Assembly: GCA_029261055.1 (NCBI GenBank)
Contig: JAJDCA010000037.1
Coordinates: forward strand, 10,291 to 74,290
Direction of reading: 5' to 3'
DNA length: 64,000 nucleotides
From: Candidatus Omnitrophota bacterium
GTDB lineage: Bacteria; Omnitrophota; Gorgyraeia; Zapsychrales; Zapsychraceae
The translations under genes were made by a program, and so were the position numbers. Positions 1,624 through 64,000 of the stretch are shown here, one piece after another (position 1 is the stretch's first letter; each line of letters starts with the position of its first letter). The notes below the pieces were generated by a model, which saw only the letters and a list, made by a program, of their open reading frames with translations, had not been told where the DNA came from and did no database searches.

Positions 1624-3756
1624 ATGAAACTAGATGCAAAGTCTGTCGGTGTAGAATCTCGTGGCGTAAAAAATACAATGAAATTCGGAATTGGCGATGC
1701 ATCCGTTGTAATTGATATTCTAAGAAATAGACTATATGCTCATCCTATTCAAGCTTTAGTGCAAGAATATTTGTCAAATGCTAGAGATGCTCATAGAGAA
1801 ATCAATTCAAGTCGATCAATAGTTATTACTATACCAACTGAGTTATCGCCAGTTTTTAAAGTTAGGGATTTTGGTCCTGGCGTTTCTCCAGATCGTTATG
1901 AAAATGTGTTCATTCTGTATGGATCAAGCACTAAAAGAGATAACAATATTCAGACTGGTGGATTTGGTATTGGTGCAAAATCTGCATGGTCTTATACTGA
2001 TTCATTTAATGTAACCACCTTTGTAGATGGTACTAAACGTGACTACATAAATCATGTTGGAAACACAAATGAGGGTGAGGCTGATTTAATAAGCGAATCT
2101 GAAACCGATGAGTTGAATGGGACAGAGATACAGATATCTGTTGATTATAATGATATCTATAAGTTTAGAGATGCTATTTTCAGAGCTACATACTTTTGGC
2201 AAGATCAATGTCAATTTTTTGGTATAGATAAAGACAGCTTGCCAGAAAAAATAGGTGTAATTGTTGGAGAAGATGTTGAAATAGTACCCAAAAATCATAT
2301 CAATAAATTATTGGGAATTAATTCTTATAGTAAGTATTTGATTGTTAGTTTAGATGGTATACCATATGCAGTAAAGGATGCCAGCGAAACAATTAATAAT
2401 GTAATGAATATGCTTGATCCTGAATACACTGCTGTTGTTCATTTGGGTGTTGGAGATATTGGTGTTGCTGCTAGCAGAGATTCCATTAATTATGATGATG
2501 AAACAAATGACACGTTAGAATTGGCAATGCATCATACTCTTAGTGTTTTTAATCGTTATATAGATAATAAAGTAAGTTCTATTGGTTCAATATCAGGATT
2601 TTTTGATGCATACAAAACACTAGAGCCTATGTTTGCCGATAATTACCTATGTAAATCTAGTTTACAGTTTAATAATTATAAAATAATATCATGGAATATT
2701 CATAGTGTTGATTTTAATTATATCAACATTGAAGAGGTGCAGTTTCTATATAATAGAAGATCAAGATCCAGAAATATGTATAGATTAACAAGAAATGACA
2801 GGAAAAGTGTTAATTTTAAGGATTTAAATCACTGTATTTATTATATTGACACAGATGAATCAAAACAAAAGATAAATAGAAGAATTCGCACCGCATTAAA
2901 TATAATCAATGATGACTTATCAAATAAAAAGGAATATATTACTGTTTTAGGTTCAAAATTAAATAATAAATCTAAACTAATGCAGATTGTAAAAGATTTA
3001 AAAGCTATTCCTATATCTTCAATAGAAATGGCTCCGGTTCAAAAAAGAACAAATACTAAAAAATTGTCTTGTGAAAGTGTGATAGTTCATTGTGTGTCAA
3101 AAAACAATTACCATACTGCTAAAAAATCTCACTCAAAATATACAAAATATGTTAATCTTTACGAAAATGAAGTTACATATATATATGTGGAGCTTCACAA
3201 AGGTAAATTTCCAGAATCTATACATGAGGGTGAATTATCAGACTGGTTTGAGAAACATTATGATGATCAAAAGTTGGTCTTTTGTGGAGTAGCTAATAGA
3301 ACTGCTAAGAGTGTTAAAAATGATTCAAATTTTATATCTCTGGAAAAATGGGCATCTAAGTTTAAACCTTCTAAAGATATGATCAATGATACAGTTTATG
3401 TTGATTCAATACGCAGAGAGTCTCAAATTGGAGACCTAATAAAAATATTAAAAGATTTGAAATTGAGAAATGCTAAGTTAGTAAAAACGGTGTATAATAT
3501 GAATGAAATTATAAATAGCTTTAATCAAAATCAATTGCCAACAAAAATAAAGGAATTAATAAATTATGACCATGAAAAACATTCAAAAAAAATAAATTCA
3601 ATGATAGATGCTTTGCGGGATGTAAAGCAACAGTATCCAATATTACAATTTTTACTAGATAATACCCATTACAAAATGGGCAATAGGTTTAAGGAAATGC
3701 CGTTTGAAGATTTGTCACTATATATTAACTATAAAAAAAGATTTTTAAAAAAATAG
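1624..3756 (+). CDS. GHKL-superfamily ATPase, Hsp90/MORC-like (HATPase_c)
   Basis: Bergerat-fold motifs in order: N-box EYLSNARDAH, G1 VRDFGPGV, G2 GGFGIGAKSAWSY. ATG at 1624 preferred over the TTG at 1606 used by the ORF track. Confidence 0.65.
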   Translation: MKLDAKSVGVESRGVKNTMKFGIGDASVVIDILRNRLYAHPIQALVQEYLSNARDAHREINSSRSIVITIPTELSPVFKVRDFGPGVSPDRYENVFILYGSSTKRDNNIQTGGFGIGAKSAWSYTDSFNVTTFVDGTKRDYINHVGNTNEGEADLISESETDELNGTEIQISVDYNDIYKFRDAIFRATYFWQDQCQFFGIDKDSLPEKIGVIVGEDVEIVPKNHINKLLGINSYSKYLIVSLDGIPYAVKDASETINNVMNMLDPEYTAVVHLGVGDIGVAASRDSINYDDETNDTLELAMHHTLSVFNRYIDNKVSSIGSISGFFDAYKTLEPMFADNYLCKSSLQFNNYKIISWNIHSVDFNYINIEEVQFLYNRRSRSRNMYRLTRNDRKSVNFKDLNHCIYYIDTDESKQKINRRIRTALNIINDDLSNKKEYITVLGSKLNNKSKLMQIVKDLKAIPISSIEMAPVQKRTNTKKLSCESVIVHCVSKNNYHTAKKSHSKYTKYVNLYENEVTYIYVELHKGKFPESIHEGELSDWFEKHYDDQKLVFCGVANRTAKSVKNDSNFISLEKWASKFKPSKDMINDTVYVDSIRRESQIGDLIKILKDLKLRNAKLVKTVYNMNEIINSFNQNQLPTKIKELINYDHEKHSKKINSMIDALRDVKQQYPILQFLLDNTHYKMGNRFKEMPFEDLSLYINYKKRFLKK

Positions 3757-3766
3757 AAAATGGCAC

Positions 3767-3795
3767 TTGCATTAGTTTAAATAATATGTTATAAT
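3767..3795 (+). promoter_or_regulatory. sigma70-like promoter TTGCAT-N17-TATAAT (extended -10)
   Basis: TTGCAT 3767-3772, 17-nt spacer ending TGT, TATAAT 3790-3795; upstream of RBS AAGGAGAAAC. Confidence 0.6.
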
Positions 3796-3823
3796 ACAAT
3801 AGATATTAGTATAAGGAGAAACA

Positions 3824-4018
3824 ATGGATAATAAAGCTAGGACTGAATTCTTGAAATGTACAATAACTGAAGTTTTGGGTGAGTTAGATGACCTAAACGA
3901 TAAACCTTGCGAAGATCCTACGTTATATGGACTAGAGGAAAAGTTTTTGTTACGTAAAATGGAAATGCTAGAGGCTCATTTAAATAAAATAGAATATCTA
4001 ATTGAAAAAGAAAACTAA
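3824..4018 (+). CDS. small conserved protein, paralog of ORF 61092..61286
   Basis: RBS AAGGAGAAAC; shares pattern EFL..LDD..P..E.F..RM.ML.AHL..EYL with the 61092 ORF. Confidence 0.5.
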   Translation: MDNKARTEFLKCTITEVLGELDDLNDKPCEDPTLYGLEEKFLLRKMEMLEAHLNKIEYLIEKEN

Positions 4019-4074
4019 TGGCCTGTAAATCAAAATCAACATTATAAACAAATCTAAAAGAAAGTGAGAAATCA

Positions 4075-5031
4075 ATGTTAAGCTATCATATTTTACCCAA
4101 TGGAATTAGTCTTAGTTATGATGGAAAAGTTGTTCTGGTCAATAAAAGCGACAAGAGACACGAGAAAATCATAGCCGCGATCAGAAATGGCGAAGAGTCT
4201 ACTATTCCTGGCATCGTTGAGCACATGCAGCGTTATTTTGACAGACATGACGGAGCTGAATTCGTTAATGGTCAAGTTTTAATCGATGGATGCGAAATTC
4301 CACAAGAGCTGAATCATTATATTCTTGGTTTGGCGGATGATGAGCTTCCATTTAATCGCATGATAAAGTTCTGGAGACGGTTACAGAAGAGTAATCGTTT
4401 CGGTGTTAGAGAAAGACTATTTCGGTTTCTTCAGCGACAAGAACATCCTATTACAGAAGATGGTAGGTTTTTGGCTTATCGTCGTGTTGGTGTTATTGAT
4501 AATAAAAAAACGAAAAAGGATGGTGTTGATGTTTTAAAATTCCCAAACAAGACTGAGGGTGAGCGCATTCTGGTTGACTTGCATACTAGGACTATCGACA
4601 ACTCAGTTGGTGAAACTCCCTATATGGACCCTGTGACAGTATGTGACGATCCAAACATTACATGCGCAGAAGGACTACATGCTGCATCATTTAAGTATGC
4701 TAGTGAATTCTACGGTGATGGTGTTTTGGTTGAGGTTGCTATTGCTCCAGAAGATGTAATTTGTGTGCCAAATGATTATGATGGGCAAAAAATGCGCACA
4801 TGCCGCTATGAAGTCATTACAGAAATAGATGGTCCAAGGTCTGGTCCCTCTGTTGATTTGGAACCTAATAATAAGACCAATGATAGTTCGGATGAAAACG
4901 TCATAATGACAGATGAAGAAATTGAGGAAGAGCGACAAAAGGAAAGATGTTGGGATTCCGAACATAACAATATTGATTACGATGATGACAATGGCAATTA
5001 CGATGACGACGATGTTGAGTATAGCTATTAA
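4075..5031 (+). CDS. hypothetical protein with poly-acidic C-terminus
   Basis: 318-aa ORF, RBS GAAAGTGAGAAATCA; C-terminal DYDDDNGNYDDDDVEYSY tail; no motif recognised. Confidence 0.55.
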   Translation: MLSYHILPNGISLSYDGKVVLVNKSDKRHEKIIAAIRNGEESTIPGIVEHMQRYFDRHDGAEFVNGQVLIDGCEIPQELNHYILGLADDELPFNRMIKFWRRLQKSNRFGVRERLFRFLQRQEHPITEDGRFLAYRRVGVIDNKKTKKDGVDVLKFPNKTEGERILVDLHTRTIDNSVGETPYMDPVTVCDDPNITCAEGLHAASFKYASEFYGDGVLVEVAIAPEDVICVPNDYDGQKMRTCRYEVITEIDGPRSGPSVDLEPNNKTNDSSDENVIMTDEEIEEERQKERCWDSEHNNIDYDDDNGNYDDDDVEYSY

Positions 5032-5062
5032 ATAATTAATTTTAAACATCACCTATAATAGT

Positions 5063-5434
5063 TTGAAAGGCATATTTATGGATTTTAACATCGGCGACAC
5101 TGTATTATTAACGTTGGACAAAAAGGCTGGAAAAGTAATTAGAAGTTTTGAATCTTTAGATGATATTGCGCTCCACTATCCACGTTATAATAGTCAGGAA
5201 GAATACTATATATTAACTAGAAAAGTATGGTATCAAGATAATAATGTTGATGAATATGACCCTATATATCTTGTCGAGCTTACTAATCCTGAATCATGCT
5301 CAGAATCAATCAAGTATATGCTTTGTCCTGGTCCACTATTATCTTTGATTAAAAATAATTGCTGTTGTGGCGTTGATACACTTGGGTATGGTATTCATTC
5401 ACAATATTGTGATAAATACAAAATTAGTTTATAG
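5063..5434 (+). CDS. hypothetical protein
   Basis: ORF with RBS GAAAGG; ends in TAG and lies in frame with the downstream pentapeptide gene. Confidence 0.5.
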   Translation: MKGIFMDFNIGDTVLLTLDKKAGKVIRSFESLDDIALHYPRYNSQEEYYILTRKVWYQDNNVDEYDPIYLVELTNPESCSESIKYMLCPGPLLSLIKNNCCCGVDTLGYGIHSQYCDKYKISL

Positions 5435-5443
5435 GTAAAGAGA

Positions 5444-6064
5444 GTGTTTAAAGTGTCAAATTGTCCTAAATGTGGTAGTCAGATAGTATATCAAGGTTTG
5501 TCCAAGGTAGAGTGCGATACATCAAGTTGTTCTAATTTCAGCTCTATCGAGTCTTTAGATGTAGATTTCAATGACGACTACTTAATGACAAAGATTAAAG
5601 ATGTGTTGAGATACACTAATTGTATTAGTTGGTTCAAGTATTTTGAAAATAATCGGCAGATAATTGCTAATGCACTAGATTCCAATAATTTAGTGGGTTA
5701 TTTTAATATTTTGCGTGATACTGAACTAGAGTATTGTAGTGGACCACTGGTGGGTAGATTATTTACTAGTTTTGGCAATTTACGTGGCGCTAATTTGAAT
5801 CGTTTTAGCTTATGTAGTGCTAATTTAGATGGCTTAGATTTGTGTGGTACTAATTTAATTCGCGCTAGTCTAGCTTGTGTCAATTTGACTGGTGCTGATC
5901 TAACCAATGCATCTTTACAAAGGGCTGACCTGTTTGGTGCTAATCTATCCTATGCTAATTTGGCTGGTGCCAACTTAACTAATGCTGATTTGCGTGGCGC
6001 TGATCTAGGATTCTGTAATTTAACTAACACTGTCTTAACTGGAACTATTTTGGAAAAACCATAA
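5444..6064 (+). CDS. zinc-ribbon plus pentapeptide-repeat protein
   Basis: N-terminal CPKCG...C..SSC; C-terminal ANL/ADL pentapeptide run; GTG start uncertain (GTG 5444 or 5453). Confidence 0.75.
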   Translation: MFKVSNCPKCGSQIVYQGLSKVECDTSSCSNFSSIESLDVDFNDDYLMTKIKDVLRYTNCISWFKYFENNRQIIANALDSNNLVGYFNILRDTELEYCSGPLVGRLFTSFGNLRGANLNRFSLCSANLDGLDLCGTNLIRASLACVNLTGADLTNASLQRADLFGANLSYANLAGANLTNADLRGADLGFCNLTNTVLTGTILEKP

Positions 6065-6072
6065 AATAATAC

Positions 6073-6101
6073 TTGCACCAATTTATTTAATGTGTTATAA
6101 T
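6073..6101 (+). promoter_or_regulatory. sigma70-like promoter TTGCAC-N17-TATAAT (extended -10)
   Basis: TTGCAC 6073-6078, 17-nt spacer ending TGT, TATAAT 6096-6101. Confidence 0.6.
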
Positions 6102-6144
6102 TTATTGTAGGTAATTTTGCTTACATAATTAGAAAGAGGCTGTT

Positions 6145-6492
6145 ATGAGCTTACTTAAAAATGATTTTGATTCACTTATGAATAAGGCTAAGAATGAAAA
6201 TCTAGTAACCAATATCGCAAAACAGGTGTTTCTGACTTTATTTTTTGGTGTACTAGGAATGATTCTTGTACCATATTCTTTGAATCTACTTTTATCTTGT
6301 GCTAGTATGGAGCCTGTTGCTACTAAAACTGCTGGATTCCTTATTGGTGCTGCTATATTTAACCTAGATAAATTTGGAAAATTTAAGTTTGTTTCAATCT
6401 TGTCTATGTTGCTGTATGTTGCTTTCGATGTAAATATGTTTGACGCAGTTAAAGTTGGCGTTGATTTTCTATTAGCTGCTGCACCAGAGTAA
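6145..6492 (+). CDS. hypothetical membrane protein
   Basis: RBS AGAAAGAGG; 2-3 predicted TM helices. Confidence 0.5.
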   Translation: MSLLKNDFDSLMNKAKNENLVTNIAKQVFLTLFFGVLGMILVPYSLNLLLSCASMEPVATKTAGFLIGAAIFNLDKFGKFKFVSILSMLLYVAFDVNMFDAVKVGVDFLLAAAPE

Positions 6493-6515
6493 AATTAAAG
6501 TTGAGAGAATAAATT

Positions 6516-6980
6516 ATGGAAATTATCGAGGGTGATTTGCTCCATTTGGCATGTACTGGTGAATTTGATGTTATTATTCATGGTACTAATTGTCAAAATG
6601 TTATGGGTGCTGGGATTGCTTATGAAATTAAGGAGTATTTTCCAGAAGCTTTTGTGGCTGACCGTGATTATTTAAGATGTCATGGTTCAGAATTTCTGCT
6701 AGGGAATTTTTCCTCAGTCGATGTTTCTGATCTGTTTGGAAGACCTTTAATTATAGTTAATGCCTACACTCAACTAAAATATGGAGAAGGATTGCAAGTT
6801 GATTACGATGCAATTGACCAAGTGTTTGGTAGAATTGCTGATGCTTTTCCAAATAAATCAATAGGTTATCCAAAAATTGGTGCTGGGTTAGGCGGTGGTG
6901 ATTGGGATAGGATCTCAAAAATAATTGATACGCGCTTAGATGGCATGGATCATACTTTGGTAATCTATAAAGAAAGTTAG
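6516..6980 (+). CDS. macro-domain protein, TARG1/OARD1/DarG-like
   Basis: VIIHGTNCQNVMGAGIAYEIKEYFP matches the TARG1-type signature (H-x-x-N-C-x-x-MGAGIA). Confidence 0.7.
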   Translation: MEIIEGDLLHLACTGEFDVIIHGTNCQNVMGAGIAYEIKEYFPEAFVADRDYLRCHGSEFLLGNFSSVDVSDLFGRPLIIVNAYTQLKYGEGLQVDYDAIDQVFGRIADAFPNKSIGYPKIGAGLGGGDWDRISKIIDTRLDGMDHTLVIYKES

Positions 6981-6986
6981 CAATTT

Positions 6987-7553
6987 ATGCTATTTACAAC
7001 AATTCAGTTATGCAAAAATAATAAACCATGTACTGATGGATATAAAAGAATGCTGGAACGATTTCCAGATCACACCAAAGATGAAATTATACCCATACTA
7101 AGAATAGCTGAAGATAACAATTTTGGACTAGAAGATGGCTTGTTTGCCTTAAAGTGCACTATGGAAGATAGTAGAAGTACCTGTATTGATTTCTGTATCT
7201 TTTGCTTAGAAATAGCTATTAATTCTTTACATACAAATAACAAAAACTACAATAGAATAATAAAGCTTGAGCGCAACATAAGAGACTATGCTTACGGTGA
7301 CATCACTACATTTCCAGAATGCGACATGCCATTATCTATTGTAGATTCTTGGGATATTGATGAGCGTATTTTAAATGTTGTGTATCATACATATTCATGT
7401 ATAGAAAGCGCAAGTAATAAAGATGCCGCTGGCCATGCCGCCGATGTGTCACACATAACAATTGATCATTGCATCAATGATAAAAATGATAAAGATATAA
7501 GGAAAAGTCAGGTGCATAAGCACTTGATTCATTTACTAGAATTTAATAAATGA
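6987..7553 (+). CDS. hypothetical Cys/His-containing protein
   Basis: 188-aa ORF, no recognised domain. Confidence 0.45.
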   Translation: MLFTTIQLCKNNKPCTDGYKRMLERFPDHTKDEIIPILRIAEDNNFGLEDGLFALKCTMEDSRSTCIDFCIFCLEIAINSLHTNNKNYNRIIKLERNIRDYAYGDITTFPECDMPLSIVDSWDIDERILNVVYHTYSCIESASNKDAAGHAADVSHITIDHCINDKNDKDIRKSQVHKHLIHLLEFNK

Positions 7554-7744
7554 TTAAATATATAGAAGGGTATGCTGTGTTTATTTCCATATTATTGATA
7601 GTGTGGAGTCTTATAAGTGTATCTATATTAGGTTTAAGTTCCCCTAAACCAACTGTTCTTGGGCTGTTTGGTGCATTAGCAGTATTAGTTTTCATATTTG
7701 TAGCCATCGTATCGAGGGATAAAAATAAAAAGGAAACATATTAG
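7550..7744 (+). CDS. small membrane protein
   Basis: Two hydrophobic helices, overlaps neighbours by 4 nt (operon-like). Confidence 0.4.
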   Translation: MIKYIEGYAVFISILLIVWSLISVSILGLSSPKPTVLGLFGALAVLVFIFVAIVSRDKNKKETY

Positions 7745-10094: not shown

Positions 10095-10934
10095 ATGCGT
10101 CTTTATTGTATTTTAGTGATTCTATTAGGCTTAATTTGTTTTTCTGTAAAAGCATATGGTCAGGATGAACAGTCGCAACCAAAGTCTTATTTCCCACATG
10201 GAACATTTAGTGACAATGGTGACGGTACTTATTTAATGGAGGTTTTTACGCAAGATATGATTGATAATGGACTTTATCCTGATGGGTTTGATTCCTTGCC
10301 CGCTCAGATGAAGTCGAGCTATCTATCTACCATTAAAACACTATTATCAACATCATATGAGGAGGGAACTAAAATTTACCTCGTGCCAGATGGTGGAATA
10401 TGCAAGATATTATCTACAGCTAAAGATGTGGTAGTTCCAGGAGGCAATAACAGATTTGAGTATAATCGGGTGGATTATACGACATATTCTACTAATCGTG
10501 CAGAGTTTAAGTCTATTACCTTTTATGGGCAGCAGTGTTGTAAGGTCAAGCTTAAGGGAGCCTTTAGTGTTCCTGAAGATGAAATTCCTCTAATTGGATG
10601 GTCTAATATAACTACACAAATTTACGATTGTAATTCTGGCAACATATCAACAGATGCTAATGGTCAAATTCAAATTAATAGCATTAATTTGGGGAGTCCT
10701 ATTGCATCAGCTCCTATATACGAAGTTAGATGGGATACAACAGGTTGGCGCGGAGAGCCTGGACTTACTCATACTCGCTTCAAAAAATTTACTGGTGAGT
10801 TTATAATGGAGGTGCCTTGTGATAGTTGTAGGATTGTTAAATTTCAGATTTCAACTAGGACAGGATCTTATTCTCTTATATATGCTTTAAAATGTGGAGC
10901 CGTCTACTGTAATGGATACGAGAATGGGTTCTAG
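10095..10934 (+). CDS. secreted protein (signal peptide)
   Basis: MRLYCILVILLGLICFSVKAYG signal peptide; RBS AAAGGACAACT. Confidence 0.55.
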   Translation: MRLYCILVILLGLICFSVKAYGQDEQSQPKSYFPHGTFSDNGDGTYLMEVFTQDMIDNGLYPDGFDSLPAQMKSSYLSTIKTLLSTSYEEGTKIYLVPDGGICKILSTAKDVVVPGGNNRFEYNRVDYTTYSTNRAEFKSITFYGQQCCKVKLKGAFSVPEDEIPLIGWSNITTQIYDCNSGNISTDANGQIQINSINLGSPIASAPIYEVRWDTTGWRGEPGLTHTRFKKFTGEFIMEVPCDSCRIVKFQISTRTGSYSLIYALKCGAVYCNGYENGF

Positions 10935-27764: not shown

Positions 27765-27838
27765 TCGCTCTTAGTGTAGTGGCAGCACCAGAAATTCTAA
27801 ACTTCTTAGTCAGGGTTCGATTCCCTGGGGGCGATCCA
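27765..27838 (+). tRNA. suppressor-type tRNA, anticodon CUA (amber), CCA encoded
   Basis: Acceptor TCGCTCT/GGGGCGA, D stem GTGT/GCAC, anticodon arm AGAAA-TTCTAAA-CTTCT (U33, A37), T arm CAGGG-TTCGATT-CCCTG, TCCA. Confidence 0.6.
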
Positions 27839-38326: not shown

Positions 38327-38397
38327 GGCTCTGTAGTTTAATGGTAAAACAGCCGATTCTAACTCGGTATTTGCAGGTTCAAATCCTGTCGGAGTCT
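38327..38397 (+). tRNA. second suppressor-type tRNA, anticodon CUA
   Basis: Acceptor GGCTCTG/CGGAGTC, D arm GTTT-AATGGTA-AAAC, anticodon arm GCCGA-TTCTAAC-TCGGT, T arm GCAGG-TTCAAAT-CCTGT. Confidence 0.6.
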
Positions 38398-39280: not shown

Positions 39281-39772
39281 TTGTCAAGGCAGAAGTATTA
39301 TGGAAGAAAAAAAACCCATAGATTAGTTATTATATTTTCTATGGTAGTATTATTGATTGGTCTTGTCTCTTCTTACTACGGGACAAGACCAATAATTATA
39401 CAGGGATTAAGTATGTTTCCATCTATATCTCATAAAGATAGATTTATATCTATTGAGAATTTCAATATAAATAGATTTGACATTGTATCTGTAGTTGTAA
39501 ACAATGAAAACCTATGCAAGAGAGTAATTGGCTTGCCTAAAGATGTAATTCAATTTACTAAAAATAATATTATAATAAATAATGAACTTATGACAGAATA
39601 TTATGTTCTTGATATTTCAGATTACGAGATTGGCAAATCATACACTCTTAAAGACGATGAGTATTTTGTAATGGGTGATAATCGCAATAATTCTCATGAC
39701 TCTAGAGCATTTGGACCTATTAAAAAAATTCAGATAAAGTCAAAAATACTTCATAGGGTTTGGAGACAGTAA
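39281..39772 (+). CDS. lepB: signal peptidase I (S26 family)
   Basis: Basic N-region plus TM, Ser box GLSMFPSIS, Lys box CKRVIGLPKD, box E VMGDNRNNSHDSRAFGPI; TTG start with RBS TAAGGACGG. Confidence 0.75.
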   Translation: MSRQKYYGRKKTHRLVIIFSMVVLLIGLVSSYYGTRPIIIQGLSMFPSISHKDRFISIENFNINRFDIVSVVVNNENLCKRVIGLPKDVIQFTKNNIIINNELMTEYYVLDISDYEIGKSYTLKDDEYFVMGDNRNNSHDSRAFGPIKKIQIKSKILHRVWRQ

Positions 39773-40734
39773 TGAAAAAACCATTATTATCAATAATTGT
39801 ACCTTGTGCTCCAAATCGAACACAGCGTGTTAAGACAATCATATCTAGATTAAGTTTAAATAAAGGATTGCATCCAGAAATCCCATTTGAATTAATAATT
39901 GTTGATGGTGGATCTACAGATGAATTAAAAGAAATATGCATGGCTGCAAGAGTACATCTAGACATAAAGTATATATATTTACCACTGTATCAATTTATCA
40001 ATCCGTCCTACCCTCGAAATGTTGGATTTAGAATTGCAGAGGGCGATATATTTACTATGCTAGATGCGGACTATTGGGTTGGAGAAGATTTTATAGTTGG
40101 TGCTACCAAGCCCTTTTTAAATGGTGACAGGGATATTATTAACAATGGTTATGTTATTGACACGTCTGAGAACAATAGAGGTGGCCAACGTGTTGCAGAG
40201 CATATAAATAGCTGTTTATTAGATTCAGTAAATTTAAAGAAAACAATATTGAGTCTTTATGATGTGTGCAATATACCTAAACCATGTGAACCAAAGCATA
40301 TTTGGCTGTGGTCAGCACCAAGACAAAATTATTTTAAGATGAATGGGTATGATGAAAAATATGTTTTAGGTGGCTGGTGTAGAGAGGACGATGATTTTTT
40401 CTATCGTACAATGGAGACAGGACTCAAAAGACATAAAAATGAATATGATAAATTTTGCTGTTTGCATATGTGGCACGAACAGGGTGTAAGGTCTAACGCC
40501 AATGTTAATCGTGAATATTATAGTAAAGTACTACCTAGTAACTTTATTAGAAATATAAATCACCAGTGGGGAAAAATGTTAGCAGGCTCATACTGTGATA
40601 TTGGTGGCACAGCACTTGACCATTACGAAACAGAAGAATGGATTGAAACAAATCAATCGGATGTTGTGTCTTATAAAAATGAAAAGCCATGGAAGTCAAT
40701 AGAAGAACTTAAGCAAAGTATAGAAAAGAGCTGA
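39772..40734 (+). CDS. GT2-family glycosyltransferase
   Basis: LSIIVPCAPNRTQRV..., LIIVDGGSTD, TMLDADYW (DxD-like). Confidence 0.65.
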   Translation: MKKPLLSIIVPCAPNRTQRVKTIISRLSLNKGLHPEIPFELIIVDGGSTDELKEICMAARVHLDIKYIYLPLYQFINPSYPRNVGFRIAEGDIFTMLDADYWVGEDFIVGATKPFLNGDRDIINNGYVIDTSENNRGGQRVAEHINSCLLDSVNLKKTILSLYDVCNIPKPCEPKHIWLWSAPRQNYFKMNGYDEKYVLGGWCREDDDFFYRTMETGLKRHKNEYDKFCCLHMWHEQGVRSNANVNREYYSKVLPSNFIRNINHQWGKMLAGSYCDIGGTALDHYETEEWIETNQSDVVSYKNEKPWKSIEELKQSIEKS

Positions 40735-41569: not shown

Positions 41570-42036
41570 ATTTTAAAAAAAAGCCAAAATCTGATTGTAA
41601 CACTATAGGTATTTGTGCAGGTTGCTTCACTATTCTTACACCCAATCATGTCAAGTATTTGGAAGAGGCAAGGGATGCATGTGATTATTTAATAGTCATA
41701 ACTAATTCGGATAAGTATATACTTGATAAAAAGGGCATTGTTCCCATATCTTGTGAAGGTAGAATGCAGATATTATCAGGATTAAAATCCGTTGATGAAG
41801 TATCTAGCTTTGAAGAAGAGGATGAGCATGACTGGATTGACAGATTTAAAAGAACTAGATTGTCTGAGTTTGCAGAAAATGCCAAGACAGTAGTGTTTCA
41901 TGATCAGTGTGCTATGTTTAATAAATTTCCAGATGATATTCCAGGATTTGGAGTGGCAGACATTGTAACTATGATTAGTCGTAAGGCTGGAGTGGCTGTT
42001 TCAGATATTTTTAGAAAGATTAAAAATGAAAAATAA
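41563..42036 (+). CDS. hldE: D-glycero-beta-D-manno-heptose-1-phosphate adenylyltransferase (HldE domain II-like), HxGH replaced by TPNH
   Basis: GICAGCFTILTPNHVKYLEEAR, LIVITNSD (VNSD block), R..ILSGLKSVDEVSSFEEEDEHD. Confidence 0.65.
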   Translation: MVNFKKKPKSDCNTIGICAGCFTILTPNHVKYLEEARDACDYLIVITNSDKYILDKKGIVPISCEGRMQILSGLKSVDEVSSFEEEDEHDWIDRFKRTRLSEFAENAKTVVFHDQCAMFNKFPDDIPGFGVADIVTMISRKAGVAVSDIFRKIKNEK

Positions 42037-42967
42037 TATACTCGTAATAGGTGATGCGATGTTAGATTCTCATGTAATGGGTCATACTGATCGCATATCA
42101 CCAGAAGCACCTGTACCAGTTGTTAGTGATGTCGAGAAGATTTGCAAGCTTGGCGGTGCTGCTAATGTGGCTGCACAAGTATCAGTTTATGCTGACAATA
42201 CAGTAATGATGTATAAAATAACATCTGGCGATCCTTTAGAACACAATGAAATGTGCAAATTGCTGAAGGAGAAAAATATTTATTTCCTTCCCATGTCACT
42301 TCCAAGAAGTAGTAAAACTATGATACCTGTAAAAGAAAGAGTTTGGGTTGGTAAACAGCAGATTTGTCGCATAGACAGAGAAAATACAGACCGCCCAACG
42401 CTTAAGGAATCAGCACAGTGGATAGAGGATATAAAAACTACTATTAAAGAATACGGCATTACTAAGGTAATATTTTCGGACTATGACAAGGGTACATTAA
42501 CGGACGGAATTATAGAGAGCATAGCTCGTTACTGCAACAGTCGTCAAATAATTACAGTACTAGACCCCAAAAGACCCACGTTCTCCGGTATTAAATTTTT
42601 ATCCGCCGTAAAGTGCAACGAAAAGGAATTACAATCAACCGGACTCAATAATATTGATGAATTATCCTCTAGTATGGCCGGAGTACGCATTATTCAAACT
42701 CGCGGGAATAAGTCAACCAAGGTTAGTTTATCCTCTATGCTTGGACTACAAAGCAGTGTAGTAGATGTCACTGAGTCAGACGTTGTTGACACATGCGGAT
42801 GTGGAGATATTCATATCGCAATACTAACACTTATGTTTGATGGAACTAATATTTTGTCAGCGGTTAGGTGTGCAAACAGTGCAGCATCATTGTCGGCCAA
42901 GCATCTTGGTTGTTACACACTATCTAAAGAGGAGATCGAAAGTTGCATACAAAGCCACACTTCTTAG
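42026..42967 (+). CDS. hldE: D-glycero-beta-D-manno-heptose-7-phosphate kinase (HldE domain I / RfaE-like)
   Basis: ILVIGDAMLD, RISPEAPVPVV, GGAANVA, VIFSDYDKG, DTCGCGD. Confidence 0.8.
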   Translation: MKNNILVIGDAMLDSHVMGHTDRISPEAPVPVVSDVEKICKLGGAANVAAQVSVYADNTVMMYKITSGDPLEHNEMCKLLKEKNIYFLPMSLPRSSKTMIPVKERVWVGKQQICRIDRENTDRPTLKESAQWIEDIKTTIKEYGITKVIFSDYDKGTLTDGIIESIARYCNSRQIITVLDPKRPTFSGIKFLSAVKCNEKELQSTGLNNIDELSSSMAGVRIIQTRGNKSTKVSLSSMLGLQSSVVDVTESDVVDTCGCGDIHIAILTLMFDGTNILSAVRCANSAASLSAKHLGCYTLSKEEIESCIQSHTS

Positions 42968-43920
42968 TAACTGGTGGATTAGGATTTATTGGATCTGCAC
43001 TAGTTGATAGATTAGAAAGAGATTATCCAAGTGTAGGTATTTTGATAATTGATAATCTTACACACTCTAGTTCTACAAAGGGAGATGAGTTTACAAATAG
43101 AGTTTTTGCACGTAGCTTAAGTCATAATGTTTTTTGTGATTTCTCAGATTACTTGCTGGAGTCATATAATGTGCAATGTGTATTTCATTTGGCAGCACTG
43201 AGCAACACTTCAACAGAATCCATGGCAGACTTATTTGAGCAAAACGTCAAGGCTACTGAACTGCTGGTTAAGTCAGCAGTTAAAAATAATATACCTATGG
43301 TGTATGCATCTTCTGCTAGCGTTTATGGTAATGAAAAAGTACCAATGGAGGAAGACCAAGATTTATTTCCTATAAGTAATTACGGTATTTCAAAAATGTT
43401 GTCTGATTTGACAGTCGATAAATATATGGATGTTGGAAATAGTATTGCTGGTTTAAGAATTTTTAACTGTTATGGACCAGGAGAAGATCACAAGCAGTAC
43501 ACCAACTCATGTTCTCCAATGCTGACATTCTATAATTCACTATCTAGTGGGAGTGGAGTCAGTCTATTTAACGACAGTAAACAATATTTTCGTGACTTTA
43601 TATATATAGATGATGTTGTAGAAGCTATTGTGTGTTCATATAGACAAGGACTAGATGGAATCTTTAATGTTGGCTCAGGAGAGTGTCATAGTTTTTATGA
43701 TATTGCTAAGCTTATTGCAGAAGAATTAGGTATAATGAATATAGACGATCTTATTACGTGGAAGTCAATGAGTGACGAGATGTATAATAGATATCAGGCA
43801 CATACGCTTTCATGCAACGAAAATTCTCCATTTAATTTTCTTTATAAAGATGTTAGAACTGGTGTAAAGAAATACATTGAATATTTAAAGAGTAGGAACA
43901 ATGGACAAAAAGCTTACTGA
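42943..43920 (+). CDS. hldD: ADP-L-glycero-D-manno-heptose-6-epimerase (HldD/RfaD)
   Basis: FLVTGGLGFIGS, YASSASVYG, SNYGISK (YxxxK), RIFNCYGPGEDHK, RDFIYIDDV, GIFNVGSG, RYQAHT. Confidence 0.75.
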   Translation: MHTKPHFLVTGGLGFIGSALVDRLERDYPSVGILIIDNLTHSSSTKGDEFTNRVFARSLSHNVFCDFSDYLLESYNVQCVFHLAALSNTSTESMADLFEQNVKATELLVKSAVKNNIPMVYASSASVYGNEKVPMEEDQDLFPISNYGISKMLSDLTVDKYMDVGNSIAGLRIFNCYGPGEDHKQYTNSCSPMLTFYNSLSSGSGVSLFNDSKQYFRDFIYIDDVVEAIVCSYRQGLDGIFNVGSGECHSFYDIAKLIAEELGIMNIDDLITWKSMSDEMYNRYQAHTLSCNENSPFNFLYKDVRTGVKKYIEYLKSRNNGQKAY

Positions 43921-56589: not shown

Positions 56590-59500
56590 ATGGATAATAA
56601 AAAACACAAGTATTGTAGTCTACATACACATTCTTCATTTTCTATTAGAGATTCTTGCAATAGGGTTGATGACCTCGTTACTAGAGCAAAAGAAGTTGGC
56701 ATGAAGGCAATTTCCATAAATGATCATGGCAATGTATTTGGACTTATTAAAATGTACAAAGCATGTCAGGAAAATGGAATTAAATTTGTACCTGGAATTG
56801 AAGCATATTTTACTCATGATCACTCGGAAAAAGAGCGGAGTTCGCGCCATATTACTATTTTGGTAGAAAATAATATAGGATTAGAGAATCTATATAAATT
56901 AGTAACACGATCTAATCTACCAGGAACTAGGGGTGGCGGGTTTTATTTTCGTCCACGTATTGATTGGTCAGACCTTAGAGAATTCCACAAAGGGTTAATA
57001 ATTTTAAGTGGATGCATGAACTCTCCAATTAATTTTGAATTTTATAAAAATGAAGACTATGAGACTGGTAAAAAATACGCTAAAGAAATAATTAAAATTG
57101 TTGGTAGAGATAATTTTTTTATTGAACTCCAAAATGTAAATGAAAAAAATAAAATATATATTCCAGAACAAGAAATTATTTTAGAATACAGTCGCCGTCT
57201 AGCAAGTGACCTAAATATTCCTGCCTGTGCATCTAATGATTGCCATATCACCAACAAAGATGATGCGTTTGCTCACGAAGTACTAAAAGCTATAGATGCT
57301 AGGATGACTTTAGAAAGTCCAGTGGTTGATAGGTCAAAAGGTGTTACTCGTGGTAGATTAGTGTTTAGTGGTTTCGACTATTATGTTCGCTCTGATGAAG
57401 AGATGCGTCAAAAATTCACAGATGAAGAAGTTGAAACAAGTAGCATTATTGCAGATAGATGTAATGTAACTTTTCCACTTGGTGAAAATCACATGCCTAG
57501 TTTTCGTGGAATGAGTGATGACAAATGCTATGATTTTCTAATACAAGAATGTCGCAAAGGCTGGAAGCGCCTAAAAATAAATAAAAAGAAAAATAAAGAC
57601 GAGTATCTTGATAGACTAAAACATGAGCTTGCAGAAGTAAAGGATGCAAGATTACATCACTATTTTATGATTGTTTGGGATGTTTGTAATTTCTGTAGAG
57701 AAAATAAAATAGCACTAGGCTTCGGTCGCGGAAGCTGTGGGGGAAGTTTAGCATTATATCTACTAGGAATAACTCAAAGAGCTGATCCAATAAAATATAA
57801 TCTAATCTGGGAGAGATTTTGGAATCATGGTCGTAAAGGGTCGATGCCAGATATTGACCTAGATATTCAGCCAGATAGACGTGAAGACGTGATTGAATAC
57901 TTGCGTCAACAGTTTGGTAATGATAAAGTAATGCCAATGATGACTATTGGCACGATGGCAGCAAAAGAAGCTATTGTTAGTTGTGGCAAGGTAATTGGAC
58001 TAAATTTAGATTATCTTCATAATATGACGAAGCTTTTCCCACACAAGTATAAGGACTTAAATGATGTTATCAATACTGTACCAGAGATTAAAGATGCTTC
58101 GAGAGGGGTGGACAAGGATGTAAAACAATGGCGCAAGGAGTGGAAATCTGCTACTGTTGGACAGAAGAAAACCCTGGAGAGACTAGCCAAGGCTCGTAAG
58201 GATAAACTTGTTAAAACATTTGAGGTAGCCAAAAGGTTAGAGGGCACTGTTAGTAACCGTGGAACTCATGCATGTGCTATTTTACTATCGGATGAATCTA
58301 TAGAGGGGAAAATTCCCACATGCTGGGATGCTAAGAGCCGAAGTGTGTTGACTGGATTTGATATGTATGACCTCGACGATCTTGGTTATATGAAATTAGA
58401 TTGCCTTGGTTTAAAAACCCTCGGAGTTGTTAATAGCATTGACACTGATTTCTACAATACGGTTGGTGATTTTGATGATCCAGAAGTATACAAGGCGCTT
58501 GGTCGTGGCAAAAACAAGGGTATTTTTCAATTAGAGAGCCAACTTGGAACAAAATGGACAAAGAAACAAAAGCCTAAAAATATTACTGATATTGCAGATT
58601 TAATTACTATTATCCGCCCCGCTGCGTTAGAACCAGGACTGTCTGACCAATATGTAAAGAATAGAGAAAGCAAAAAGAAGCCAGTATATCTTCATCCTGA
58701 CCTAAAAAAAATACTAGACGACAGTGAAGGTGTAATGATATACCAAGAACAGGCGTTAGAGATAGCGAGGTACTATGCCGGATTTTCTTTACAGAAGGCA
58801 GACTCACTAAGAAAAGTTCTCGGAAAAAAGCTTGAAGACAAGCTTCCAGAGTTTGAGGCAGAGTTTAAAGACGGCGTTGTGGAAAAATTCAATGATGCTG
58901 ACCTTGCTCACGAACTGTGGGAATGGCTAAAGCATGGCGCTGGCTATGGATTCAACCTAGCCCACGCTTTAACTTATGGTATGATGGCATATACAACAGC
59001 CTACTTTAAACTGCATCGACCAATGGAATTTTTCTGTGCCATGCTTCGATTCTCCGAGTATAAACAAAATACACAGGAAGAAATCGGAGAACTGTTTTAT
59101 GATGCCAAATGGCATGGCGTTGATGTCAAAGGCCCATGTGCTCTTCATGGAAATGAAGATTTTGAAATTATAGATGGTGAAATATATTATGGACTTGCCA
59201 AAATAAAGAGCGTGGGACTAACTACAATTAAATCACTAAAGAAAACGAAACTAAATACTTGGCAAGATGTTGTTAGGAATAGAAAAAAGTTAAAGAAAAA
59301 TGTGGTAGATTCTCTAATTTGGTCTGGTGCATTGGACTATCTTAATATATCAAGAATAGAGATGGCTTCTAATATGGAGTTTCTAGAAAATCTTACAGAT
59401 AGAGAGATTGAGATATTTAATACAGGTTTTCTGGGAGAGAGTTCTGTTGAATTTAAAGGTGGCAAAGTAGTTTCATTGAATCCTAAAAATAATACATTAT

Positions 59501-60009
59501 CTTTTCGTGAAACCGTTGATGCGTTTTATAAATTTATGACTGATTCAAAAATAGGAAATTCAAAAATAAAAGCCATAAGCGCTCGTAGAGCTGAAAAGGT
59601 TACTGATTATTTAGCATTATTCCTATCATCAAAGTTGGAAGACATCTCCAAATCTAAAATTGCCCAAAAAGAGACACATTATTTGGGAATTCCTTTGACA
59701 TGTTGTGAGGTTGATATGTATAATGATAATAGACAAACTCACAGTATTTTAGATATAGATAAAGAAATAAATGGTAAAGGTGTTGCGACGATAGGTGTTG
59801 TGTCAAAAATCAATACAAGGCTTGATAAAAACCGTAATCGCATGTGTTTCATTGGCCTACAAGACAAGACATTTATGATAGATGCTGTCATGTTTTCTGA
59901 TTCTTATAGAAAATATGGAACAGGTATAGATGTTGGGAGTGTGATCTATGTTGAAGGTAAGAAAAACAACGGTGGGTCATTCCAGATTGAGAAGGCGGAG
60001 ATTCTTTGA
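56590..60009 (+). CDS. dnaE: DNA polymerase III alpha subunit-like (DnaE-type, PHP domain)
   Basis: N-terminal PHP HTHSSFSIRDS...NDHGNVFG...GIEAY; 1139 aa; polymerase core FGRGSCGGSLALYLLGIT; C-terminal OB-like region. Confidence 0.85.
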   Translation: MDNKKHKYCSLHTHSSFSIRDSCNRVDDLVTRAKEVGMKAISINDHGNVFGLIKMYKACQENGIKFVPGIEAYFTHDHSEKERSSRHITILVENNIGLENLYKLVTRSNLPGTRGGGFYFRPRIDWSDLREFHKGLIILSGCMNSPINFEFYKNEDYETGKKYAKEIIKIVGRDNFFIELQNVNEKNKIYIPEQEIILEYSRRLASDLNIPACASNDCHITNKDDAFAHEVLKAIDARMTLESPVVDRSKGVTRGRLVFSGFDYYVRSDEEMRQKFTDEEVETSSIIADRCNVTFPLGENHMPSFRGMSDDKCYDFLIQECRKGWKRLKINKKKNKDEYLDRLKHELAEVKDARLHHYFMIVWDVCNFCRENKIALGFGRGSCGGSLALYLLGITQRADPIKYNLIWERFWNHGRKGSMPDIDLDIQPDRREDVIEYLRQQFGNDKVMPMMTIGTMAAKEAIVSCGKVIGLNLDYLHNMTKLFPHKYKDLNDVINTVPEIKDASRGVDKDVKQWRKEWKSATVGQKKTLERLAKARKDKLVKTFEVAKRLEGTVSNRGTHACAILLSDESIEGKIPTCWDAKSRSVLTGFDMYDLDDLGYMKLDCLGLKTLGVVNSIDTDFYNTVGDFDDPEVYKALGRGKNKGIFQLESQLGTKWTKKQKPKNITDIADLITIIRPAALEPGLSDQYVKNRESKKKPVYLHPDLKKILDDSEGVMIYQEQALEIARYYAGFSLQKADSLRKVLGKKLEDKLPEFEAEFKDGVVEKFNDADLAHELWEWLKHGAGYGFNLAHALTYGMMAYTTAYFKLHRPMEFFCAMLRFSEYKQNTQEEIGELFYDAKWHGVDVKGPCALHGNEDFEIIDGEIYYGLAKIKSVGLTTIKSLKKTKLNTWQDVVRNRKKLKKNVVDSLIWSGALDYLNISRIEMASNMEFLENLTDREIEIFNTGFLGESSVEFKGGKVVSLNPKNNTLSFRETVDAFYKFMTDSKIGNSKIKAISARRAEKVTDYLALFLSSKLEDISKSKIAQKETHYLGIPLTCCEVDMYNDNRQTHSILDIDKEINGKGVATIGVVSKINTRLDKNRNRMCFIGLQDKTFMIDAVMFSDSYRKYGTGIDVGSVIYVEGKKNNGGSFQIEKAEIL

Positions 60010-61629: not shown

Positions 61630-64000
61630 ATGTCTAATAAACATAAAAAATCTTCCAACAGTTCAATAAATCTTAAAAATGGTATTAAGGTTGTGAGAAA
61701 CAATCAGAAAAAAACATCGGCACCTAAATTTGATGGTGTTTCAAAGTTAGCACTACCAAGAATTATTGGTGGAGATTTTGACTATGATGCGAATGATATA
61801 AGTAAATATCAAAAGATGATAGATGATGCGCCCAAAAGAAATGAAAAGCCACGCATTTTATTCATTGGTGAAGCTTCTTATTTAAAGACAGGGTTTTCAA
61901 CTTATCTTCACTATGTGTTTTCTCATCTCTATGAGACTGGAAAATACGAATTAGCAGAACATGCTTCTTACGGATATTCAAAAAATGTAGATCCTCGTGC
62001 CAGATCTGTTAAATGGAAATATTATCACTGTATGCCTGAAAGTCCAGAAGAAGAGAGATTGTACAAGTCTGATCATGAAGCACAGTTTGGTAAATTGAAA
62101 CTATCTCAAACATTATCAGATTTTCGTCCAGATATAATTATATGTATTAGAGATAATTGGATGGATACACATGTTCTTAAGAATAAACTAGCTAAAAATG
62201 CATCAATATTTTGGATGGTGTGTCTAGATGGCTCTCCTCAAAAATGGGAATGGTTGCAAGATTACAATAATGTTGACAAAGTGTTTGCATATTCTTATTT
62301 TGGCAAAAAAGTATTAGAAAGCCAGTCTAAGTCAGAGTTAGCGAAAGTCAAAAATGTCAAACCAATTCTTGTTTCAGATGTTATGCAGGCTGGTGCAGAT
62401 CTAGATGTTTTAAAACCATTACCTCGTGATGAGGTTTACGAAAAGCTTGGCTTGGGTGAGGCCAAACATCTAAGATTTATTGGCACCGTAATGAGAAACC
62501 AACCTAGAAAATTATTCACTAGAATAATCGAATCATTTGCTGAATTAATTCGCAAGCATCCTAAAGAGTCTGAAAATGTTATGCTGCATTTGCACACTAG
62601 CGTTAGGGATGTTGGTTTCAATATTCCAGAGGCGATTCAACAAAACGGTGTAGAGCACAGAGTTACTTTTACATATCTATGTCAGGGATGTGGAAATGTA
62701 GCAATATCAACTTTTCGTGGTTCACCTACGCAGTGTCCTTTGTGTGGTGAAAACAAGATGGATTGCCCAAGTACTGCGCATGGCCTAGACCCAAAAACAT
62801 TTAATCTTATATACAATATGCTAGATGTTTACATTCAAGGGTCAATTGCAGAAGGGTGTTTTGGCAAAGGAACATTAGTTTGTACAGGTAAAGGCTATAT
62901 TCCAATTGAAACGGTGTCTGTTGGTGATAAAATATTATCACATAATGGAAAATGGCAAACAGTCAATAAAACCTTCATCAATGAGGTAAGCAGTAGTGTT
63001 CTAAAGCTTGGAATAACTGGAACATACGAAGACATCATGATAACAGATAACCATAAAGTATATGTTGCAAAAACAAACGAAGTGATTGATAAGTGGGGCA
63101 GAAAACATAATACACCAATAGGTGAAGTAACATCTAAGTCTGCTGGCAAATTAACAAAAGAGGACTGGATCGCCTGCCCTATTGACCAACATGTTGATGA
63201 TGTACAATATATAAAAATTACAGACTATGTTTCCGACTCTTATGAAGATAAAAATGGGTTGGTAAGATATAAAACTAAAAGATACTGCAAATCTGGAATC
63301 CAAACGGATGTAAAAAATAAATTCGAACTAAATAATGATAATTTAAGCCTATTGGGTTTGTTGATGGGGGATGGCTATTTTGATGGTAGATATGTATCAA
63401 TTTCAGGAAACAGTCAAACAAAATTAAAAAACTTTGAACTATTTGAAAAATCAATGAATGGGCTTACAGAAAATCCAGTAGGAAAAAGAATTAAGTCCAA
63501 TGCAAATGCTACTGAATGTACTGTTAGTAGTCCAATATTATCTAAATTTTTTAGAGCACTAATAGGAAGATATTCAAGAGATAGAAAAATACCTAGTGAA
63601 TTGATTCATTTGCCGATCAATAAGCAAAAATTATTCATATGTGGTTACTATATGGCAGATAATACTACAGACAAGGATCTAATAGGGTTTAGCACTAGCT
63701 CTTTACAATTAGCTACTCAAGTCAGAAACATGCTGTCAAGAATGAACATTTGCATGTATATTTCTAGTTGTAAGAGGTCAAGTTGCGAATATAAAATATA
63801 TACAAAAATTAACAGAGTAGAATTGAGTCTCCTTGTGAATGAAACTAACTTTAAATATGAAAAACCAAAAAAAGATAGATTAAGATCTAAAATTATTAAC
63901 AATTATATATTTTCTAGGGTTAAAAAAATTGAAAAATGCAATTATGATTGCGACAAAGTTTACAACCTACAAGCAATAGACAGGGAGAATATCAATAATA
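61630..64000 (+). CDS. GT4-like glycosyltransferase interrupted by an intein (3' end beyond window)
   Basis: Open frame from ATG 61630 to window end (not in ORF track because it is unterminated). Extein ends ...NMLDVYIQGSIAEG (EGxG catalytic block), then Cys-1 of the intein. Upstream zinc ribbon CQGCGN...CPLCGEN. Confidence 0.6.
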   Translation, partial: MSNKHKKSSNSSINLKNGIKVVRNNQKKTSAPKFDGVSKLALPRIIGGDFDYDANDISKYQKMIDDAPKRNEKPRILFIGEASYLKTGFSTYLHYVFSHLYETGKYELAEHASYGYSKNVDPRARSVKWKYYHCMPESPEEERLYKSDHEAQFGKLKLSQTLSDFRPDIIICIRDNWMDTHVLKNKLAKNASIFWMVCLDGSPQKWEWLQDYNNVDKVFAYSYFGKKVLESQSKSELAKVKNVKPILVSDVMQAGADLDVLKPLPRDEVYEKLGLGEAKHLRFIGTVMRNQPRKLFTRIIESFAELIRKHPKESENVMLHLHTSVRDVGFNIPEAIQQNGVEHRVTFTYLCQGCGNVAISTFRGSPTQCPLCGENKMDCPSTAHGLDPKTFNLIYNMLDVYIQGSIAEGCFGKGTLVCTGKGYIPIETVSVGDKILSHNGKWQTVNKTFINEVSSSVLKLGITGTYEDIMITDNHKVYVAKTNEVIDKWGRKHNTPIGEVTSKSAGKLTKEDWIACPIDQHVDDVQYIKITDYVSDSYEDKNGLVRYKTKRYCKSGIQTDVKNKFELNNDNLSLLGLLMGDGYFDGRYVSISGNSQTKLKNFELFEKSMNGLTENPVGKRIKSNANATECTVSSPILSKFFRALIGRYSRDRKIPSELIHLPINKQKLFICGYYMADNTTDKDLIGFSTSSLQLATQVRNMLSRMNICMYISSCKRSSCEYKIYTKINRVELSLLVNETNFKYEKPKKDRLRSKIINNYIFSRVKKIEKCNYDCDKVYNLQAIDRENINN
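62857..64000 (+). mobile_element. intein with LAGLIDADG homing endonuclease domain (C-terminal part outside window)
   Basis: Block A CFGKGTLVCTGKGYIPIETVSVGDKILS; LAGLIDADG motifs LLGLLMGDGYFDGR and LIGFSTSSLQLATQVRNMLSRMNI. Confidence 0.7.

Follow-up and report, generated by a model that had tools for sequence, protein, structure and literature searches.

We analyzed a 64,000-nucleotide stretch of DNA (positions 10,291 to 74,290 of contig JAJDCA010000037.1, assembly GCA_029261055.1, deposited as a Candidatus Omnitrophota bacterium), referred to here as the window. The last gene in the window encodes a GT4-like glycosyltransferase of the GT-B type, and it is very likely that this phage gene is interrupted by a genuine intein, inserted in the EX7E loop of the enzyme. 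Judged by its sequence, the insert is an intein of class-1 type, about 397 residues long, that splits the EX7E motif between its second and third residues (E-G↓C-G-M-P-x-x-E; arrows mark splice junctions). The following features were assigned to the gene:

61630..64000, + strand: 5' part of the glycosyltransferase–intein precursor gene, starting at ATG 61630 and running off the end of the window after 790 codons
61630..62856, + strand: N-extein (409 residues), comprising the N-terminal Rossmann domain and the beginning of the C-terminal domain in a GT-B/GT4-like enzyme, from homologues, profiles and a structural model
62680..62748, + strand: four-cysteine zinc ribbon (CQGCG...CPLCG) in the C-terminal domain, from weak Zn_ribbon_8 and FmdB matches and alignment
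62851..62856, + strand: Glu408-Gly409, the first two residues of EX7E and the end of the N-extein, from the nearly invariant E384/G385 in alignment A1 and the alignment with MshA
62857..64000, + strand: intein, predicted Hint splicing domain with a nested LAGLIDADG homing-endonuclease domain, from Pfam and NCBIfam; 381 of about 397 residues lie in the window
62857..62940, + strand: intein block A, CFGKGTLVCTGKGYIPIETVSVGDKILS, with the nucleophile Cys1 at 62857-62859, the residue at which the Hint_2 and Hom_end_hint matches begin
63019..63066, + strand: intein block B, TDNH (TxxH) at 63043-63054, from reading of the sequence and alignment to same-site inteins
63343..63387, + strand: LAGLIDADG motif 1, LSLLGLLMGDGYFDG, core LLGLLMGDGY, aligned to the LAGLIDADG helix of the V-ATPase intein 7qsu
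63622..63672, + strand: LAGLIDADG motif 2, KQKLFICGYYMADNTTD, core FICGYYMADN; Pfam LAGLIDADG_3 spans intein residues 257-310
63955..63999, + strand: start of intein block F, KVYNLQAIDRENINN, core KVYNLQAID; the window ends inside this block

A ribosome-binding site (AAGGG) lies 6-10 nt 5' of the ATG at 61630, and the frame is free of stops from there to the last full codon at 63999, in agreement with the original prediction, which had described the final gene as open to the window end. The 381 codons of the intein stretch would remain free of stops by chance with a probability of ≈6e-15 at the base composition of the window (34% GC), while the other five frames over the same stretch contain 12-59 stops each.

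The N-extein terminates in LIYNMLDVYIQGSIAEG (...DVYIQGSIAEG), directly before Cys 62857. A block A and two LAGLIDADG motifs had been predicted to follow this Glu-Gly, and are borne out by CFGKGTLVCTGKGYIPIETVSVGDKILS at 62857-62940, by Pfam and by the coordinates of the motifs. Pfam LAGLIDADG_3 (PF14528) matched the insert with E = 7.8e-11 (42.5 bits, compared to a cut-off of 22.5), and Hint_2 matched with E = 2.6e-6. NCBIfam models of the intein-bearing archaeal RpoA'' and V-ATPase A also matched the insert region, and the PHROGs match was to intein-bearing proteins, such as an anaerobic ribonucleotide reductase (RNR). The endonuclease part could be aligned with the solved V-ATPase inteins 7qsu and 7qss (best E = 1e-4, with low identity). 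Acidic residues are retained in both LAGLIDADG motifs, which makes an active homing endonuclease in the window intein plausible.

Full-length homologues stand in for the missing 3' part of the gene, and the intein and extein comparisons described here are therefore partly by proxy. A word-indexed protein search with the intein alone gave no match. An exhaustive HMMER search of 1.84 billion representative proteins with the intein yielded 2694 matches at E ≤ 1e-3, including 354 at E ≤ 1e-10, and the four top matches were complete glycosyltransferases of the same family, each with an intein at the identical site:

P0121: 1023 residues, intein 63% identical to that in the window, E = 1.5e-155
P0122: 1006 residues, intein 42% identical, E = 1.1e-74
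P0123: 1361 residues, intein 35% identical, E = 3.8e-62
P0124: 1000 residues, intein about 33-34% identical, E = 8.6e-45

The search for intein profiles that had been named as a check in the original prediction gave Pfam matches, borderline in the case of Hint_2, and the HMMER search with the intein gave those listed above. The P0121 intein is 397 residues long, and the 63% identity spans residues 1-380 of the window intein. All same-site inteins are 385-397 residues long, and the boundaries read ..QG[ST][IV]AEG↓CF... and ...[H/G/S]N↓CGMP[IVC]xE.. in all four, with the C-terminal ends GVGN↓C in P0121, VSN↓C in P0122, and VHN↓C in the other two. Cys1 is aligned across the same-site inteins and P0057, a family member with an intein at an adjacent site. 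Block B is kept as T..NH/DH in the four same-site inteins and reads T(E/S/G)(N/D)H in P0121, P0122 and P0124, and the block F sequence KVYNLQAIDRENINN aligns with VVYNLQAINENNID...GVGN↓C of P0121 and DKVYNLEVEN...ACHN↓C of P0057.

The intein-free proteins P0001, P0002, P0007 and P0016 run through the site without a gap (..AEG-DGMPxNE..), and the exteins of the same-site homologues are continuous when aligned with P0002 and P0016, with Cys+1 in place of the Asp. The two remaining checks, a C-terminal splice junction with continuous exteins and a comparison with intein-free orthologs, both came out in favor of an intein by proxy, through the four same-site homologues. We also considered a start of the intein at the Ala (..SI↓AEGC..), which would place it at the same site as in P0057. 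This was ruled out, since the alignment pairs Cys1 with that of P0057 and of all relatives, and AEG has its counterpart in the intein-free exteins, showing that the sites after residues 382 and 385 (P0002 numbering) are distinct.

Searches for 50-mers taken at the junction and at the window end gave no exact match in viral or metagenome contigs, nor did back-translated intein or N-extein queries find relatives in viral contigs or metagenome contigs. The neighboring SSB and DnaE proteins likewise had no identical protein on record. Since the window DNA and its exact proteins were without match in the collections searched, we considered the possibility that the glycosyltransferase–intein junction was an artefact of mis-assembled metagenomic reads. 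However, the in-frame junction AEG↓CF.. recurs in four diverged cluster representatives, two of which come from different samples or have different architectures. Furthermore, the GC content at third codon positions is 0.252 in the extein and 0.247 in the intein, so that the insert is compositionally at home. A chimeric assembly is thereby effectively refuted.

Several observations do weigh against a genuine intein in this gene. The window stops ≈16-17 residues (≈50 nt) short of the C-terminal splice junction, leaving the terminal Asn and the +1 residue outside, and also stops before the whole C-extein (≈225 residues by homologue alignment). The Hint_2 match of the truncated window copy is borderline (28.3 bits, compared to a gathering threshold of 28.4), whereas full-length relatives pass (29.2 bits for P0121 and 30.0 bits for P0124). 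In the closest relatives, neither the usual penultimate His (P0121 ...GVGN↓C and P0122 ...VSN↓C) nor the block-F His is present, and splicing could therefore be slow or impaired in the P0121/P0122 sub-lineage. Finally, some alleles with an intein after residue 382 are broken by a stop right after the intein, hence not every intein allele is one continuous enzyme.

Except for the Hint_2 score and the missing C-extein, these same points would fit a decaying or splicing-dead intein, in which case the allele would either be on its way to a pseudogene, with an inactive glycosyltransferase as its product, or encode a protein that is used unspliced. Such decay is unlikely, however, given that the frame is intact over 790 codons in 34% GC DNA, that Cys1, TxxH and the acidic residues of both LAGLIDADG motifs are retained, and that the terminal Asn and Cys+1, together with an intact, conserved C-extein, are present in each of the four same-site homologues. 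Moreover, inteins without the penultimate His can still splice. We thus favor a genuine intein over a dead one.

The host enzyme was identified through its homologues. The N-extein had 160 homologues in the word-indexed protein collection (best 54% identity), typically 545-650 residues long and most with a match to PF00534 (Glycos_transf_1). The window N-extein alone did not match PF00534, because the matching region lies mostly in the C-extein; the homologues P0103, P0002 and P0124 scored 30.7, 26.4 and 26.4, respectively, compared to a cut-off of 26.4. In PHROGs, no family matched the N-extein. A profile made from 38 intein-free members matched the GT4 structures of MshA (1.4e-8), PBCV/chlorovirus B736L, PimB' and BshA, and the family segment 'ysiaEGfgmPiveakacG' was aligned with MshA SFNESFGLVAMEAQASG, which corresponds to the EX7E motif. 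The family consensus for this motif is E-G-x-G-M-P-x-x-E, of which the window shows the first E-G (62851-62856), with the remainder located beyond the intein.

The orthologue P0002, which is 53% identical to the window over the N-extein, was used as a structural stand-in. Its AlphaFold (AF2) model had a predicted local distance difference test (pLDDT) score of 91.4 and a predicted template-modeling (pTM) score of 0.87. When this model was compared to the PDB with Foldseek, the top 50 matches were all GT-B sugar transferases, the best of them GT4 enzymes (E to 4e-19, target TM 0.7-0.79). The best matches were B736L, GlgM, MshA, BshA, PimB', PglA and PimA. Together with the GT4 profile matches, the model and its Foldseek matches supported the predicted GT4-like nature of the host.

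In the P0002 model, the insertion point between G385 and D386 falls in the loop that connects strand 376-379 with helix 388-395. The interruption had originally been placed at a catalytic Glu-Gly. Its location directly after the Glu-Gly of EX7E is supported by the MshA alignment, but the term "catalytic" should be corrected to donor-binding or active-site: the first Glu of EX7E is a donor-binding/active-site residue in GT4 enzymes, not a proven catalytic nucleophile. By analogy, a retaining mechanism may be inferred from the GT4-like fold and motif. The zinc-ribbon insertion that had been noted in the host gene is indeed present at 62680-62748, and the family profile has ≈35 extra positions in this region relative to MshA, between two aligned blocks. 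However, all four of its cysteines are invariant in 38 family members, and the ribbon is thus a trait of the whole family rather than a peculiarity of the window gene.

From these features, a pathway can be proposed in which the precursor would be enzymatically dead as translated, because ≈400 residues split the donor-binding loop. The intein would then excise itself after translation through an N-S acyl shift at Cys1 and trans-thioesterification to Cys+1, followed by cyclisation of the terminal Asn and an S-N shift. The spliced product would read ...SIAEG-CGMPxxE..., in which Cys takes the place of the Asp or Phe of intein-free alleles. In co-infected cells, the endonuclease would cut intein-less alleles at the conserved motif, and recombinational repair would copy the intein into them (homing).

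Comparison of alleles is consistent with such mobility. Between the window and P0121, the inteins are 63% identical and the N-exteins 54%, whereas P0124, which has the closest N-extein among the intein-bearing alleles (57%), has a far more distant intein, as listed above. The exteins of P0121 are in turn 78% (N) and 69% (C) identical to those of the intein-free P0002. Such discordance between intein and extein identities, together with the patchy presence of the intein, indicates that it has probably spread by horizontal homing. Homing would explain the patchy distribution among close alleles, the closer relationship of the window and P0121 inteins compared to their exteins, and the occurrence of inteins in this family at seven or more conserved motifs.

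A further alternative is that the Hint/LAGLIDADG module has lost its mobility through domestication, for example by becoming a regulated post-translational switch for the timing of glycosyltransferase activation. Since Cys1 and Cys+1 flank the junction, they could conceivably form a redox-sensitive disulfide, splicing could be slowed by the non-canonical C-terminal block, and the inteins of the family always sit in conserved functional motifs. On the other hand, patchy presence and discordant intein/extein similarity are the signature of mobility, not of a fixed domain, and the acidic residues are kept in both LAGLIDADG motifs. Domestication is thus very unlikely, and a mobile intein is preferred.

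Inteins are widespread in this family: 41 of the 150 best intein representatives matched the N-extein of the same phage glycosyltransferase family, and at least 41 representative clusters of the family carry inteins, at seven or more sites. The insertion sites were mapped onto intein-free references and are given in P0002 numbering:

After 87: AELG↓C..HN↓SYGH, 3 representatives
After 146: FKPDIV↓C..HN↓CDIRD, about 17 representatives
After ≈154: IRDxWM↓C..HN↓C, 3 representatives
After 177: MPTVD[AS]↓C..HN↓C, 3 representatives
After 382: YVQYSx↓C..HN↓CEG[FL]G, about 25 representatives
After 385 (the site in the window): AEG↓C..N↓CGMP, the window and 4 representatives
After 395: EAKS↓C..HN↓CGVP, 1 representative
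Further site, in L017 (a mis-binned contig of a metagenome-assembled genome, MAG): FQPDIVWD↓C..HN↓CRDPWM

In alignment A1, every mapped site coincides with a motif that is invariant or nearly so, and several proteins carry two inteins (e.g., P0123, P0225 and P0129). The spliced products of the two adjacent sites would differ, with YSI-C-EGFGMP for site 382 and SIAEG-C-GMP for site 385. The possibility that the site-385 intein is a recent derivative of the site-382 inteins was not supported, as the identity between them is only 26-31%, no higher than to the inteins of the unrelated multi-intein proteins P0125-P0127. These three proteins (3308, 1861 and 1543 residues, respectively) consist mostly of repeated Hint/LAGLIDADG modules, with up to 7 matched stretches, and their inteins are as near to the window intein as those at the neighboring site in the glycosyltransferase. 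Pfam recognized no extein domain in P0125, P0126 or P0127.

In P0057, P0131 and P0249, which have the site-382 intein, the gene stops exactly five residues past the intein and restarts at the conserved Met of EX7E, with the sequences ..HN↓CEGWG-TGA-gc-ATG MPLTEAQACG.. and ..HN↓CEGDG-TGA-atggc-ATG MPIQEAKACG.. at the following positions:

L001: 2340-2370
L002: same sequence as L001
L005: 7330-7360
L006: 2430-2460

The downstream open reading frame (ORF) holds the remainder of the enzyme (230-234 residues in L001, L002 and L005, while the L006 contig ends within it). Its occurrence in two diverged lineages excludes an assembly error, and the split may represent gene fission with translational coupling beside the homing site.

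The family-level hotspot, which is apparently undescribed, is more noteworthy than the single intein. A more far-reaching proposal would combine an unrecognized major hotspot in a widespread group of uncultivated aquatic phages, with seven or more sites, alleles carrying two or three inteins, and gene fission at the same motif, with a role for the EX7E-site inteins that is not purely selfish, as a conditional, slow or redox-gated switch that delays an essential glycosylation during infection. As a whole, we regard this proposal as decidedly improbable.

The window represents a large phage that encodes rIIA, DnaB, primase, UvsX, DNMK, DnaE and SSB. The gene order DnaE, small ORF, SSB, glycosyltransferase is conserved in contigs L003, L004 and L005. 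In all three, the gene is followed by further glycosyltransferase genes (GT9/GT2 or GT1/GT2), and glycosyltransferase genes also follow the intein-bearing homologue in L001. In the window, genes for a GT2 glycosyltransferase, a PfkB-family sugar kinase and an NAD-dependent sugar epimerase/dehydratase are located at 39760-40734, 42026-42967 and 42943-43920, respectively, and in related contigs SIS-isomerase and GT9 (heptosyltransferase-like) genes are found beside the intein host gene. Together, these genes suggest a phage-encoded glycan pathway, perhaps of the heptose type. The DnaE of L003, the contig of P0121, has 1933 residues and contains intein domains (1757-7558), while the DnaE in the window has 1139 residues and is intein-free (56590-60009), showing that intein load varies between related phages.

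A megablast search against 50,697 phage records gave nothing, and tblastn gave only three weak matches to annotated glycosyltransferases (22-24% identity); no cultured phage with a close homologue was found. Family members were also present in MAGs of eleven unrelated bacterial and archaeal taxa (contigs L007-L020), with labels that include Hydrogenophaga, Paceibacteria, SAR202, Verrucomicrobiales, Flavobacteriales, Dehalococcoidia, Roseovarius, Promethearchaeota, Phycisphaerales and Thermoplasmatales. Most likely, these are mis-binned phage contigs.

The window also contains two tRNA genes with the anticodon CUA (amber-suppressor type; labeled Pyl by ARAGORN), at 27765-27838 and 38327-38397, among tRNA-Met (two), Gly, Asn and Pro genes; a tRNA cluster spans 25753-27838. 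TAG terminates 21 of the 70 long + strand ORFs in the window, so that recoding, if any, would concern other (late?) genes.

With these findings, the known intein hosts come to include a GT-B/GT4 glycosyltransferase, and the insertion in its nucleotide-sugar-binding EX7E loop fits the view that ligand-binding motifs of the highest conservation are where inteins settle. The heavy colonization marks the gene as highly conserved and probably essential in the uncultivated aquatic phages that carry it, which form a large group. With diverged inteins at the adjacent sites 382 and 385 in one loop, the family also provides material for studies of homing-endonuclease specificity and of the extein dependence of splicing. 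For annotation, the 900-1400-residue "hypothetical" proteins of the family are better read as glycosyltransferase precursors.

By sequence, the element is a canonical LAGLIDADG-bearing intein, and its mechanism would be nothing categorically new. It shares Cys1, TxxH, a nested double-LAGLIDADG domain between the Hint halves and block F with class-1 inteins such as PI-SceI/VMA1 and those of archaeal V-ATPases (7qsu, 7qss), which also insert in a conserved ligand-binding motif of their host, and its same-site relatives share the terminal Asn and Cys+1. It differs in its host, which is a glycosyltransferase rather than an ATPase, polymerase or RNR, and in that its closest relatives have Gly/Ser at the position of the penultimate His and Asn in place of the block-F Asp (VYNL). 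Like the solved GT4 enzymes (MshA 3c4q, BshA 3mbo, PimB' 3oka and B736L 3oy2), the host has a GT-B fold of two Rossmann domains, with EX7E at the equivalent structural position. However, the phage family also has the four-Cys zinc ribbon, a basic tail at the N terminus and, at the C terminus, a helical extension with DUF4214, and identity to solved GT4 enzymes is only 11-16%.

Fungal chitin synthase (CHS) is a membrane enzyme of family GT2 that is encoded by a eukaryotic nuclear gene. Four cases of CHS inteins have been listed (PMC5784728), and in the literature searched for inteins or exteins in connection with glycosyltransferases or phages, this was the only glycosyltransferase host found, with no GT4 or phage case. 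The original description of an intein in a glycosyltransferase active site as unusual needs qualifying, since inteins are common inside this family. Unlike CHS, the phage host is a soluble, GT-B/GT4-like enzyme with inteins at seven or more sites, and these were not found to be related to the CHS inteins.

The closest parallel to the family as a whole is provided by the established intein hotspots (DnaB, RNR, the terminase large subunit and DNA polymerase; for background on phage and bacterial intein genes, see PMC4760082 and PMC3706429), which likewise have inteins at several independent sites in their most conserved motifs and with a patchy spread. As in those hosts, some proteins carry 2-3 inteins, and the distribution implies homing. 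Whereas the known hotspots belong to replication, packaging and nucleotide metabolism, however, the host described here is a sugar transferase, though one encoded directly after DnaE and SSB.

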